IMG/VR virus record: IMGVR_UViG_3300031170_000002
Location: 1 to 26,054 of that record
Origin: a virus
Lineage: Duplodnaviria; Caudoviricetes
Direction: 5' to 3' (one strand)
Length of the DNA: 26,054 nt
The position numbers were made by a program, and so were the translations under genes. This document shows positions 1 through 10,208 of this stretch, piece by piece. Positions within the stretch are counted from its first letter, which is position 1. Each line of letters starts with the position of its first letter. The notes below the pieces were generated by a model. That model did no database searches, was not told the origin of the DNA, and was given only the letters and a program-made list of their open reading frames with translations.

Positions 1-1535
1 TACTCAAAAGACAACGATCTACCATTAACGATCTTCGGCGGCTCAGAGAAGAGCAGTCTGCCTCCCCACGTCTTGACGGGGAGGCCACGCCTACCTCTAG
101 CAGATACGTCGTCCATTAATTCTTGAAAGCCGGGGAGAGCTTGAAAGTAGTGCTTACGGATGCTAGAGGCTGTGCTCCTATCAACACCCAATAGTCCCGC
201 AAGTGAATTGATACCCGAACCATACAGTAGGGAGAAGCCCGTGATCTTAACCAGTTTACGGTCGAGCACAAGTCCGGCGTCCTCTTGGATAATCCTCGCG
301 ACCGCTGCGTGGAAATCCGCACGCGGATCATTGCGATAAATCTCGGCAGCACGTCCCTCCGCAAAGTGCGAAGTAATTCGCATCTCTTGTCCATTAAAGT
401 CGGAGGGTACCAGCACGTGACCCTCATCGGGGAGTATGTACCTACGCATACTCGGAAGTGGAGGCAACCCTGGCGGCGGCTCTGTCTTGAATTCAGTCGG
501 GATATTCTGGAAATTGGGATTGGAACTCGACAGCCTACCCGTCCGTGTGCCATAGACATCGCCTCGTACTTGATTAAATTGGGGATGGAGCCTACCGCCT
601 TCACTCATACCGAACCACGGCAGCATGAATGTAGTCAAGATCGTTTTCAAGTTAGACCTGTATCCGATTATCTGTCTCAGCTCGGGGTCTTTGACCGCCC
701 GATCCATACTATCCTTGGCTACGCTTAACTTGCCCGTCGGGGTTAACAGGAAGTCGGCTTCATGCGCCTTACCGCATTTGAGGAGGGTCCGTGCTAACTC
801 GGCAGGTGAGTCGGGATTGCAAGAACCGATGATAGCGAGCAGACGCTTAGTGATCTCACCCATAGCGTTCTGCGCTAGGGTCAGGTCGCGCTCTAGCAGT
901 TCTCGGTCGATGCGAATACCATCCCTCTCGTTCGCGTTCAGAATCGGGGCGAGGCGCTGCTCGCGACGGTACGCCTCAAGCATACCCTTCTTGTTAATCT
1001 GATCCATCAAATGGTCGAATAACTTGCGGGTACGATACGTGTCCCCGTTCGCGTACTTGCCTACGATCCCACCAGGAGCCTTGGATATATGTGCTCCCCA
1101 TCCCTTGCCCCCAAAGCCCATTTTGGCTAAATGTATCTCTAGGTCTTTTTGCTCATCGGGGGGCATACCTAGTATGCGCTCGGCGGATGGTTTTAGCGAC
1201 AGCGTATCCGCGTTTGGATCATAGAGGTAATTCAGAAATAGGGTATCATGAACATCGAGCGGGTCATGATGAGTCGGGAGGTCCATATGTACGCGGGCGA
1301 CCTCAGTATCGAATCTGCCGTTATGGAAGAGGCACGGTTGCGTCCATAGATCAGCTAGGACGCCCCGTGCTTCCTCGTAACTGCTATTGTTCTCGGTCGG
1401 GTGACCCCAACCATAGTACGTCGGATCAGTAGTACCGGCGATCCATACAGACACCCCTACCGGCTTGGGTGGGTAGTTAGGATGGGCTTGTATACCTTCA
1501 GTTTCGAAGTCCACTGTATGGATCGCCGTATTCAT
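1..1535 (-). CDS. polA: Family A DNA polymerase with 3'-5' exonuclease domain, 3' end beyond the window
   Basis: Not in the ORF track; translated by hand from ATG at 1535 (ATGA overlap with the upstream gene) and open to the window edge. ExoI VDFET, ExoII FHNGRFD, ExoIII KYANGD, GTRTGRLSSSNPNFQNIP, motif A DFNGQEMR, motif B RKLVKITGFSLLYG. Confidence 0.96.
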   Translation of the reverse strand, partial: MNTAIHTVDFETEGIQAHPNYPPKPVGVSVWIAGTTDPTYYGWGHPTENNSSYEEARGVLADLWTQPCLFHNGRFDTEVARVHMDLPTHHDPLDVHDTLFLNYLYDPNADTLSLKPSAERILGMPPDEQKDLEIHLAKMGFGGKGWGAHISKAPGGIVGKYANGDTYRTRKLFDHLMDQINKKGMLEAYRREQRLAPILNANERDGIRIDRELLERDLTLAQNAMGEITKRLLAIIGSCNPDSPAELARTLLKCGKAHEADFLLTPTGKLSVAKDSMDRAVKDPELRQIIGYRSNLKTILTTFMLPWFGMSEGGRLHPQFNQVRGDVYGTRTGRLSSSNPNFQNIPTEFKTEPPPGLPPLPSMRRYILPDEGHVLVPSDFNGQEMRITSHFAEGRAAEIYRNDPRADFHAAVARIIQEDAGLVLDRKLVKITGFSLLYGSGINSLAGLLGVDRSTASSIRKHYFQALPGFQELMDDVSARGRRGLPVKTWGGRLLFSEPPKIVNGRSLSFE

Positions 1536-3025: not shown

Positions 3026-3058
3026 GTTAGACCTCGAAAGTAGCTGATTAGTTCCGTG
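3026..3058 (-). promoter_or_regulatory. ECF sigma (RpoE/AlgU-like) promoter P1
   Basis: CAC-GGAACT-N17-GTCTAA-C on the - strand, upstream of the SSB/PolA operon. Confidence 0.75.
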
Positions 3059-5393: not shown

Positions 5394-6017
5394 TTAGGCT
5401 GCCGGTTGCTGCTCCGGCGATTCAGTAGCAGGCGCGGCCTCGGTGGTAGCCGCCGCTTCAGCTGCGGCCTTCTTCTTGGCCATAGCGTCTTGAAACGCCG
5501 CGACCCGCTTGAGGTCCTTCGGCTGACCCGACTCGTCTAACTTGCCGAGCCGGTCTGGGTCCTTCCGCTCCGTTGTACCGACGCCAACGCTGAACGACTT
5601 GTCGGCGAACGACTTGGCTTCAACGGCGTAGTCCAAGGTGATATAGCCCTCAGCGGGGCCATCGTCCTCGGGAATGCTGAACCAAATGTAGTCTAGCGTG
5701 GTCGCCTCGTCCTTGGCCCACATGCGATTGCTCGTGGTCCAGACGGGTGTTTCCACCCCATTGATGTCGAGCTTGAACTCACCCTCGGGCTGCTTGCCCG
5801 ACCGCTTCGGCAACTTCATCCGCGTGAACTTATAGCCGATACCGCTGTCCATTTCGACAGCGACGAGGCCCGGCTTGCGCGGAGGCAGGTTGGAGACCTT
5901 CGGGGTTTCAGTCGCCGAGCTCAACTTGACGTCCAGTTGACCGACGTTCTTGGGTTCAGCCGTATCTTGCTCCGGCGTTGCTTGCTCTTCGTTGGTAGCA
6001 AACTTCTTCTTGGCCAT
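5394..6017 (-). CDS. Hypothetical protein (207 aa), paralog of 9087..9488
   Basis: Start moved to ATG 6017 (MAKKKF; RBS AAAGGA). Shares LPKR, NG, TSN..W, L.Y.WFS, TL.Y and SV.VGT with 9087..9488. Confidence 0.85.
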   Translation of the reverse strand: MAKKKFATNEEQATPEQDTAEPKNVGQLDVKLSSATETPKVSNLPPRKPGLVAVEMDSGIGYKFTRMKLPKRSGKQPEGEFKLDINGVETPVWTTSNRMWAKDEATTLDYIWFSIPEDDGPAEGYITLDYAVEAKSFADKSFSVGVGTTERKDPDRLGKLDESGQPKDLKRVAAFQDAMAKKKAAAEAAATTEAAPATESPEQQPAA

Positions 6018-6698: not shown

Positions 6699-6730
6699 GT
6701 TAGACCGCTCGTCAGTCGGTTAGTTCCGTG
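6699..6730 (-). promoter_or_regulatory. ECF sigma-like promoter P2
   Basis: CAC-GGAACT-N16-GTCTAA-C, overlapping the 3' end of 6712..6942. Confidence 0.75.
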
Positions 6731-7793: not shown

Positions 7794-7825
7794 GTTAGAC
7801 CCGCCGACAGCGGATTAGTTCCGTG
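7794..7825 (-). promoter_or_regulatory. ECF sigma-like promoter P3
   Basis: CAC-GGAACT-N16-GTCTAA-C, intergenic. Confidence 0.75.
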
Positions 7826-8392: not shown

Positions 8393-8424
8393 GTTAGACC
8401 GCGAATCACGGGAAAAGTTCCGTG
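8393..8424 (-). promoter_or_regulatory. ECF sigma-like promoter P4
   Basis: CAC-GGAACT-N16-GTCTAA-C with a full GGAACTT -35 element; the -35 lies in an inverted repeat TCACGG/CCGTGA. Confidence 0.75.
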
Positions 8425-8438
8425 AAATTAGCTTCCAG

Positions 8439-8733
8439 GTTACGGGTAGGGTTTTGGTTGTGACTTACCCGTAACTTCTGATAGTAGAGTAAATTAGTCG
8501 GGAATAGGGTCTTTCCAAGTTACGGGTTACGAGTACAAGGTGGTGGGGCAAAATACCCGTAACCTTGTAAAAGCCTTTAGAATTAAGGGGATAGCATAGT
8601 CAGGTTACGGGTTACGGGTTACGGCTATGGAAATTTATGCCCTCCGTTTAGGGGGTATTTCCAAAATCCTGAAACTCGGGAGGGTACCTAAAAGCGTATC
8701 ATAAAACAAAGGCTTTTTACCCGTAACCGTAAC
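8439..8733. repeat. Array of ten GTTACG/CGTAAC iteron-like repeats; putative replication origin
   Basis: GTTACG at 8439, 8519, 8526, 8604, 8611, 8618; CGTAAC at 8470, 8558, 8722, 8728; non-coding with AT-rich spacers. Confidence 0.7.
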
Positions 8734-8755
8734 CTGAAAGTGCCGGGCAATTGGA

Positions 8756-8839
8756 CATCCAAATTCACGCTCGGCCCATCCAAATTCACGCTCGACCCAT
8801 CCAAATTCACGCTCGGCCAATCAACGTTGACGCTCGGCC
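8756..8839. repeat. 21-bp tandem repeat, 4 units
   Basis: CATCCAAATTCACGCTCGGCC x3 (one mismatch in unit 2) plus the degenerate unit AATCAACGTTGACGCTCGGCC. Confidence 0.9.
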
Positions 8840-8861
8840 AATCAGCGCGATCCAAGAAATC

Positions 8862-8887
8862 AAACCCCAGCTTCTCAGCTGGGGTTT
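8862..8887 (-). terminator. Intrinsic terminator, possibly bidirectional
   Basis: Perfect 11-bp inverted repeat AAACCCCAGCT/AGCTGGGGTTT with a GAGA loop on the - strand and a T-rich tail, just after the 8894 stop. Confidence 0.75.
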
Positions 8888-8893
8888 CATCTC

Positions 8894-9037
8894 TCACGGC
8901 CTCGCAGACGTCATATGAAATCCACCTCTCTTCAAGCCGTCCCAGATTTCACGGGCCAGATGGACGTTCTCCTCCGCCGGTACGTTCACCTTTAGGGCCA
9001 CCGACGACGCGGGCAGTTGGAACCAAATCGTATACAT
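8894..9037 (-). CDS. Small protein (47 aa), paralog of 6140..6361
   Basis: Not in the track. GAGGAG RBS; MYTIWFQLPASSVALKVNVPAEENVHLAREIWDGLKRGGFHMTSARP. Confidence 0.8.
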   Translation of the reverse strand: MYTIWFQLPASSVALKVNVPAEENVHLAREIWDGLKRGGFHMTSARP

Positions 9038-9058
9038 CGCTTTCTCCTCAGTAAAGGC

Positions 9059-9080
9059 GCGGGGCGCTTTCGCGCCCCGC
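9059..9080 (-). other. Intercistronic GC-rich hairpin with GAAA tetraloop
   Basis: GCGGGGCGC/GCGCCCCGC 9-bp stem between two genes. Confidence 0.6.
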
Positions 9081-9086
9081 TTCAGG

Positions 9087-9488
9087 TTAGGCCCGCTTCG
9101 CCCAAGTATCCCGGAATTTATTTATCCGGCCAGCCTCCGTTTCGAGCCGTTCGGTCACGGTCTCGAATTTCCCGTCCACGAGGCGCTTCGGTACCTTCGG
9201 GCCCGTTCCGACTTCCACGGAGACCTCCGTTCCCTCCCACTCGGCCGCCTTCTCCCCGTAGCCGAGCGTCACGAAGTAGGCGCGACCCTCGACGGAGAAC
9301 CAGAGGTATTCGAGCGCCAGGCTCGGATCACCGCACCAGGCGAGATTCGAGGTCACTATCGTCTTCACGACCGTCCCGTTCACGATTAGCGGCACCGAAC
9401 CGACGCCGCGCTTCGGGAGCGCACCTTTCCGGTCGGAGCACTTCGTCAGGGCGAATTCGCGCCCGTCGAGCAGGTTTACGAGTTTCAT
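9087..9488 (-). CDS. Hypothetical early protein (133 aa), paralog of 5394..6017
   Basis: AAGGAG RBS; no His or Gln; coding strand has no CA. Confidence 0.85.
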   Translation of the reverse strand: MKLVNLLDGREFALTKCSDRKGALPKRGVGSVPLIVNGTVVKTIVTSNLAWCGDPSLALEYLWFSVEGRAYFVTLGYGEKAAEWEGTEVSVEVGTGPKVPKRLVDGKFETVTERLETEAGRINKFRDTWAKRA

Positions 9489-9540
9489 CTTCGGACTCCT
9501 TAAAATCGGGGCGCGAATACCCGCGCGCCCCTATCGGGTA

Positions 9541-9732
9541 TTAGAGGTAAACGACCTCCGCGAGGCCCGCGTAGAGCGGTCCGAACCGCTCGACCGCGAA
9601 TTCGAGCGCCCGTTCTTCGGTCGCGAAAATCCCGTAGACCGCGCCCTTCGCGTTCCGGTTAAGGCGCGAGCCGCGAAGGGCGCTCGCGAGCCTAGGGCTC
9701 GCGAGATAGTAAAACTTCGAGAAGGTCTTAAT
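9541..9732 (-). CDS. Putative first early gene, 63 aa, ATT start
   Basis: Not in the track. AGGAG RBS (9743-9739), 6-nt spacer, ATT; (M)KTFSKFYYLASPRLASALRGSRLNRNAKGAVYGIFATEERALEFAVERFGPLYAGLAEVVYL; downstream of P5. Confidence 0.65.
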   Translation of the reverse strand: MKTFSKFYYLASPRLASALRGSRLNRNAKGAVYGIFATEERALEFAVERFGPLYAGLAEVVYL

Positions 9733-9774
9733 TTCCGTCTCCTAGCTAACCCGCGAACGTCGCGGTCCGTATAA

Positions 9775-9806
9775 GTAAGACCGCGAGTTTTTGGGGAAGT
9801 TTCCCG
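9775..9806 (-). promoter_or_regulatory. Degenerate ECF sigma-like promoter P5
   Basis: GAAACT-N16-GTCTTA-C; same spacing as P2-P4, and shares TCGCGGTCT with P4. Confidence 0.55.
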
Positions 9807-9820
9807 ATTCTGACCTAGGC

Positions 9821-9982
9821 CGACGAACGGTAAAGGGCGCTAGGCGAACGGTAGCCCGGTTTATATACGTTAGTTAGCACTTACTAACCGTATATCTATA
9901 CGGTAGTAGGTTAGTTAGCACCTACTAACTTTTTATCGAACGTTCGTTCGACCGTCGAACGTTCGTTCGGTACTACCGTATA
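9821..9982. repeat. Cluster of direct and inverted repeats at the divergence hub
   Basis: CGAACGGTA x2; GTTAGTTAGCACYTACTAAC x2 (9869, 9910); TCGAACGTTCGTTCG x2 (9936, 9955); 12-bp inverted repeat 9897-9908/9971-9982. Confidence 0.8.
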
Positions 9983-10052
9983 TCCGACGGGTACCCATGA
10001 TGGCGGCGGGTGGGGTGTGGGGCACTGGCCCGTGAGGGAGGACCCGCAGCCC

Positions 10053-10128
10053 TGCGTTTCACGTAACATGCCTGTAGGACAGAGCATATAAATTTGCGTT
10101 TCACGTAACATGCCTGTAGGACAGAGCA
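10053..10128. repeat. Perfect 34-bp direct repeat, 42-bp period
   Basis: TGCGTTTCACGTAACATGCCTGTAGGACAGAGCA at 10053 and 10095; degenerate third copy near 10152. Confidence 0.9.
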
Positions 10129-10208
10129 AATAAGAAAATACCCAGCATAAATAACATACCTGTAAGACGAAAAGCAAACGATTCCAGAAACTATCGTCTG
10201 AAACCCAC

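Follow-up and report, generated by a model that had tools for sequence, protein, structure and literature searches.

A TG/CA-free first transcription unit and a predicted ATT-started 63-codon gene in a podovirus from a clade with thymidine-hypermodification genes

Initiation at AUU is known in bacteria from the gene pcnB. In infC, the AUU codon serves autoregulation by IF3, and the gene still yields thousands of IF3 molecules per cell; with AUU as start codon, one phage gene reached about 5% output in E. coli (PMC5499595). The 63-codon open reading frame (ORF) described here resembles infC (PMC5499595) in that a strong Shine–Dalgarno (SD) sequence is followed by ATT, with no NTG start available. 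It differs in that ATT appears to be forced by a dinucleotide rule at the DNA level, and in that the relatives of the virus, unlike infC, present a graded series of ATG, TTG and ATT starts.

First-entry DNA with sequence rules of its own, avoiding host restriction sites, is known from phage T5 (first-step transfer) and phage T7 (leader and gene 0.3). The locus analysed here likewise has a short first-expressed region (about 0.5–1 kb) with its own sequence rules. Unlike in T5 and T7, a whole dinucleotide has been removed, likely the target of the phage's own modification, and with it five amino acids and the start codon. The tract is a real feature on this theme, and the ORF is likely a real gene.

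Phages M6, YuA, ViI, phiW-14 and SH-Ab 15599 carry a 5-hmdU DNA kinase (5-HMUDK) together with an amino acid:DNA transferase, and this gene set is also present in relatives of the virus studied here. Hypermodified T was reported at TG (or TG/TC) in M6, ViI and phiW-14 (PMC6449724), at TG or TG/TC in SH-Ab 15599 (PMC13458397) and at TG in Pbunavirus (PMC12191111); background on the pathway is given in PMC8989533 and PMC5889632. Unlike the published hypermodifying phages, the present clade consists of podoviruses of roughly 40 kb, the nearest cultured phages by large terminase (TerL, about 40%) being HTVC010P/P26218-like and without HMUDK. No account of a TG-free first unit or of a forced ATT start in phages was found in open-licence PMC and bioRxiv; what is new is that the clade itself can be connected with a characterised TG-directed pathway, together with the ATG–TTG–ATT start series.

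The window (the whole stretch of DNA analysed, 26,054 nucleotides, IMG/VR record IMGVR_UViG_3300031170_000002) covers part of a podovirus genome. On the plus strand, the genes for terminase, portal, capsid and tail follow from 10244; the minus strand carries the early and replication genes, which extend from 9732 into a polymerase gene truncated by the end of the contig. The early strand opens with the ATT ORF as its first frame, divergent from the packaging genes. The features used below are as follows.

3 to 1532, minus strand: gene which we take, from its motifs, to be DNA polymerase A-like, cut by the contig end (64–77% identity to clade relatives)
5394 to 6017, minus strand: paralogue of E1 outside the tract, serving as internal control (CA 42, His/Gln 8)
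9019 to 9791, minus strand: coding strand without CA (template without TG), 773 nt, spanning the ATT ORF and E1 (dinucleotide scan)
9087 to 9488, minus strand: E1, a conserved first-unit early gene of the clade, 133 aa (0 coding-strand CA, no His or Gln)
9487 to 9791, both strands: stretch without TG or CA, 306 nt (dinucleotide scan)
9508 to 9531, minus strand: GC-rich hairpin that separates the ATT ORF from E1, with GATTTT after it (fold, z −0.67)
9541 to 9732, minus strand: 63-codon ORF with a predicted ATT start, protein P0002 (open reading frame and codon score)
9739 to 9743, minus strand: SD sequence AGGAG, 6 nt 5′ of ATT, overlapping an in-frame TAG (sequence)
9751 to 9765, minus strand: 6-bp leader hairpin (MFE and centroid fold)
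9769 to 9804, minus strand: promoter-like site, a variant copy of a five-member GGAAC-N16-GGTCT family (repeat families, pattern search)
9792 to 9996: upstream non-coding zone with 4 TG/CA steps in about 200 nt and inverted repeats

Clade relatives were found through TerL and a small terminase-like gene. The polymerase, TerL and capsid of the window are 64–83% identical to those of the relatives, G007 apart. Genomes G001–G007 represent a podovirus clade, with genomes of about 40 kb, that has a cluster of genes for thymidine hypermodification; other named groups contain the cultured HMUDK phages that the search brought up.

The ORF reads on the minus strand as AGGAG (9743–9739), 6 nt, ATT-AAG-ACC from 9732, 63 codons and a TAA ending at 9541; the plus strand of the same interval gives another peptide. 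The layout described in the initial annotation, which had left the strand unstated, is present on the minus strand. As had been described, the frame contains neither TG nor CA and no ATG, GTG or TTG, and Met, Trp, Cys, His and Gln are absent from its interior. An upstream start is not possible, because the in-frame TAG, three codons upstream of ATT, overlaps the SD sequence. The same TAGGAG-N6-start layout was found in G004 (with ATT) and L047 (with TTG). A Logan contig had 0 differences from the window over 8400–10082, so that an assembly slip at ATT is unlikely, although the window may itself derive from the data behind this contig; run X2 spans just 193 nt of E1.

Codon scores were calculated with a model trained on nine tract E1 genes of the clade, from which the 63-codon ORF was left out. 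The ATT frame scored 17.6 bits, the best of the six frames (antisense frame 8.5), and this value was reached by none of 20,000 CA/TG-free Markov nulls and by none of the 2,431 open ones. It is improbable, in our estimate, that the frame is untranslated, being a chance open frame or a decaying gene in a TG/CA-free leader, and that the first gene is really E1. Such a reading would draw on the 12% of CA/TG-free nulls of the same length and make-up that are open, on two further open frames in the region (102 and 164 codons), on the weakness of ATT as a start, on the lack of a P0002 homologue and on the low ESM recognition score of P0002 (2128, under the level of most known families). It sits poorly with a perfect SD sequence at the clade's usual spacing, a GC3 of 0.82 like that of E1 (0.80), a codon score above all nulls and a single-sequence structure model that is compact (mean pLDDT 69), and a G004 gene of proven homology has the same SD–ATT layout. 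On sequence grounds, the 63-codon frame is very likely a gene; we hold with good confidence that it would be translated, and it is likely the first early gene of the podovirus, weakly translated.

Homologues of P0002 were found neither in phages (tblastn) nor in IMG/VR, a 5.8-billion set or the clade loci. The 1.84-billion set (full HMMER library) gave only one spurious repeat-protein match (E 9.5e-4), and blastn of the ATT-ORF region against phages gave no match. P0002 had no Pfam or PHROG family and no Foldseek match in the viral set at E ≤ 0.001; the best ESM Atlas match (0.77) is a lead only. The tblastn search that had been recommended for 63-aa homologues with ATG at the same position thus returned no ATG-bearing orthologue, so support for the ATT start was taken from the neighbouring E1 family instead. 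An orthologue of the ATT gene would most likely be met in the DNA adjoining the closest E1 relatives, P0005–P0007 (61–69%). The idea that P0002 is a candidate anti-defence protein found no backing in families, homologues or folds, its position being the sole basis. The prediction that standard gene callers would miss such a gene agrees with the absence of the exact P0002 sequence from a collection of 15 billion proteins and with the ATT gene of G004, which was missed by an NTG-only scan.

E1 is a conserved early family, uncharacterised so far, whose fold found no match in Foldseek. Its structure model is beta-rich (pLDDT 85), and neither a Pfam or PHROG family nor a Foldseek match at E ≤ 0.001 was found; an E1 query returned no loci in IMG/VR, and a profile search gave 21 proteins. 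Wherever enough sequence of a clade genome is available, a CA-free E1 copy lies in the tract, and a longer, normal paralogue lies deeper in the genome.

Coding-strand CA was counted in 12 E1 genes: seven had 0, three had 1–2 and two had 11. About 11–19 were expected from synonymous shuffles of the nine E1 genes tested, eight of which lacked both His and Gln; six E1 paralogues outside the tract had 28–49 CA and 8–17 His/Gln. Coding-strand TG is kept in the E1 genes of the window (20 copies), G001, G002 and L055. It is reduced in G005 (Met, Trp and Cys codons only), L047 (TTG start and Trp) and G004 (Trp only), and the series ends with none in the 63-codon ORF of the window. As judged from the sequences, the most constant rule of the clade is the loss of CA from the E1 coding strand, the loss of coding-strand TG being variable.

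ATG is the start codon in ten of the 12 E1 genes, whereas L047 has TTG and G004 has ATT; the start of L141 was read by eye. The G004 gene (contig L019) reads TAG-GAG-AGA-TCT-ATT, with an in-frame TAG, AGGAG-N6-ATT and no ATG, GTG or TTG. From about residue 14 it is homologous to ATG-started members (own paralogue, E 7e-26; G003 E1, 3e-15). Its sole TG is a Trp codon, and the gene must therefore start at a non-NTG codon if it is expressed; the case is represented by one contig. L047 has the same AGGAG-N6 layout in front of its TTG start. The initial annotation had held TG avoidance to be strong enough to displace ATG, and this proposal gains an independent parallel in G004 and an intermediate in L047. 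A second TG/CA-free frame of about 50 codons without ATG, GTG or TTG was seen in G004 (L019:2106-2282, minus strand); it scores best in frame (8.0 bits) and possibly starts at ATA or ATT.

The 306-nt run without TG or CA is followed in length by gaps of 77 and 67 nt, both just upstream of it. A 400-nt scan interval at the tract held 3 CA+TG versus 44.6 expected (Poisson log10 P −15), and values of −8 to −22 were obtained for the tracts of the window and G001–G005. In clade relatives the TG/CA-poor tract lies at the same place, over the E1 family, and in seven of seven zero-CA loci CA resumes 18–69 nt beyond the last stop codon of the first unit. The genes behind the four other copies of the promoter motif have normal CA and TG. 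In the available DNA of L130, L144, L054, L057 and L143 the tract is absent or weak; these loci are uninformative, because no E1 was found there by HMM.

The composition of eight tracts was pooled (CA = 0 in this pool is partly due to the choice of tract boundaries). Their GC content is 0.54–0.63, equal to or above that of the contig and thus not poor; CG (1.52) and TA (1.42) are enriched, and TC (1.06) is not depleted. Since GC is normal, CG and TA are raised and TC is untouched, the tract reflects selection against one step and not deamination; a RIP-like or deaminase scar, with GC loss and a gain of TA only, was thereby ruled out. Avoidance of CCA or phosphorothioation was also ruled out, as the one TG that G004 and L047 retain is TGG. 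A strict template-strand rule for every gene was rejected on account of two early genes of reverse polarity, L071:15445-15717 (minus strand) and L073:9912-10160 (plus strand), which have 0 avoidable coding-strand TG and normal CA, so that TG is kept on the template. The list of clade genes from the gene caller is no census (E1 of G001, G003 and G006 was missed).

Genes for thymidine hypermodification were sought in the relatives. HMUDK_hel (5-hmdU DNA kinase) was found in five of them (G001, G002, G003, G006 and G007). The kinase of G001, G002 and G003 matches PF18723 (E 1e-41 to 3e-38), has a P-loop part in addition and lies beyond the replication genes. A thymidylate-synthase-like gene is present in G001–G003, and G001 has an amino acid:DNA transferase match (PDB 25qc, E 2e-18); a member of the same PHROG family as this transferase occurs in G005. 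G008, G009 and G010 (47–84% complete) gave no kinase match. The window contig ends inside the polymerase gene, beyond which the hypermodification cluster lies in relatives, and the G004 contig also ends short. The phage of the window would itself carry the cluster by analogy with these relatives, and the modification of the clade would mark TG, as is known for other 5-HMUDK phages. The kinase and transferase genes of the relatives, with the published hypermodified T at TG, make the purged step the likely self-modification target. The initial annotation had offered no cause for TG avoidance; judging by the relatives, the cause is likely to be a TG-directed thymidine hypermodification carried out by the phage itself.

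Such a tract is no general rule for HMUDK phages. The kinase is present in eight of ten cultured phages scanned, and these eight, unlike the clade of the window, had no real TG/CA-free unit. YuA, Ab19, JL001, Sonora, CBA120, phiW-14 and SH-Ab 15599 reached log10 P −3.8 at best, and a TG dip in Koji (log10 P −8.2) was discarded as a second case because it is due to an Asp/Glu-rich (acidic) protein tail. No tract was found in the two cultured controls without kinase. In G007, a genome with the kinase, tract and E1 are both absent; with the eight cultured phages, it indicates that TG hypermodification is not sufficient for a tract. Like the window, the Wifcevirus ECML-117 has a CA/TG-poor island of early small genes; unlike it, depletion there is symmetric and about 3–4-fold, the one ORF scanned in the island has an SD–ATG start and no HMUDK_hel was found in the phage. 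ECML-117 may possibly carry another TG chemistry.

Because the tract follows the E1 clade rather than HMUDK, being absent from G007 and the eight cultured phages and present in ECML-117, the purge could answer a host activity unrelated to self-modification, such as short-motif restriction, a PAM-like rule or an mRNA cutter reading CA, and the HMUDK cluster would then be coincidental. Loss of coding-strand CA ending near the terminator would suit an agent acting at the RNA level. We rate this explanation as quite improbable: the avoided step is the one marked by the 5-HMUDK and Pbunavirus pathways, and a CA-reading RNA agent leaves the loss of TG, the genes with normal CA and no TG, and the depleted upstream DNA unexplained. 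Wifcevirus are, moreover, distantly related to Pbunavirus and withstand most of the restriction systems tested, no protection being known for them (PMC11990801).

The reading preferred here is that the first unit is kept clear of the thymine that the phage itself modifies, to let host RNA polymerase (RNAP) read the incoming DNA, the 63-codon gene being ATT-started for this reason; we judge it about evenly balanced between right and wrong. The clade would hypermodify thymine at TG, and the first transcription unit would have been purged of TG/CA, with ATG replaced by ATT in the 63-codon gene. Modified virion DNA would enter with the tract as the entering end of the genome, host RNAP would read the unmodified template of the first unit, and the products of this unit would then help the remaining genome to be read or protected. 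Both ends of the G006 contig fall in the tract and show a short imperfect repeat, which is compatible with a genome end. Transcription is favoured as the sensitive step because the tract ends with the first unit, because E1 clears template TG and because phosphorylation by HMUDK cuts RNAP output: in vitro, transcription by E. coli RNAP fell to 10% of that from the hmU template, a value that refers to the phosphorylated intermediate and not to the final amine adduct (PMC6457204). Somewhat more tentatively, and a little short of an even chance, the phage's own hypermodification may be a genome design rule, in which the first unit lacks modifiable TG and the ATT-started 63-aa protein and the new-fold E1 let the host read or spare the rest.

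The same gene and the same self-modification would fit a pressure exerted by a host modification-dependent nuclease or glycosylase (END or GmrSD type), which we consider unlikely, although less so than a host activity unrelated to the modification. At least one strand of the first unit would then carry no modified T before an inhibitor, perhaps the 63-aa protein or E1, has been made. END nucleases act early on T-hypermodified phages, and phages encode small inhibitors (PMC12191111), although neither P0002 nor E1 resembles a known one, and gp87–gp88 of phage 14-1 (anti-END1 if the tag fits the numbering of that paper) lie in DNA with ordinary CA and TG. The depletion in non-coding DNA 5′ of the promoter and the strand-sorted TG/CA blocks in phage 14-1 (59,000–60,000) suit this explanation. 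An agent that needs marks on both strands would also account for the polarity on either strand (E1 versus the two reverse genes), for which the EcoP15I sites of T7, all in one orientation, offer a parallel. It accords less well with a tract that stops near the end of the transcription unit (in seven of seven zero-CA loci) and with an E1 that nearly always clears the template strand.

Avoidance of modified thymine for reading by host RNAP would bear on how host RNAP begins transcription when the phage DNA that enters is heavily modified, and on the price a phage pays for hypermodification. The graded series (ATG, TTG, ATT; TG kept, reduced, absent) and the named enzyme pathway make these points testable in vitro with known enzymes. 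A dinucleotide constraint can override a start codon, and gene callers may thereby overlook the genes that are expressed first; if the preferred reading is true, TG/CA-free tracts would mark TG-hypermodified phages at the sequence level and would be places where non-ATG genes lie concealed.

The promoter-like site belongs to a family GGAAC/GGAAAC-N15-16-GGTCT with five minus-strand copies in the window (3029–3055, 6702–6727, 7797–7822, 8396–8421 and 9778–9804). A loose form of the pattern gave 6 matches versus 2.2 by chance, and 2 of 100 shuffles reached 6. No sigma-70 match was found at about 9769–9804; the GGAAC-N16-GGTCT family presumably resembles an ECF-sigma consensus. Sigma-70-like sites with a TG-free −35 box were seen instead 5′ of E1 in G001 and G006. 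The leader hairpin of the initial annotation is predicted in both the MFE and the centroid structure, but folding of the region is no stronger than that of shuffled sequences (z −0.25). The hairpin at 9508–9531 with its GATTTT is possibly a terminator or processing site.

TG-rich, strand-sorted runs lie directly outside the TG-free tract on the packaging side in L047:1034-1200 and L138:120-330. In phage 14-1 (L165), which is reported to modify T at TG, the region 59,000–60,000 is largely non-coding and strand-sorted, with one 250-nt block of CA 1/TG 25 and two blocks of CA 31–32/TG 3–4. Direct and inverted repeats of GTTACGGG/CCCGTAAC occupy 8430–8740 of the window and are followed by 21-nt tandem repeats (8756–8839); similar repeats occur in L019 and L047, and the region 8430–8839 is possibly a replication origin. 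Between the tract and the packaging genes, a 42-nt tandem duplication was observed at 10053–10133, where the Logan contig breaks.
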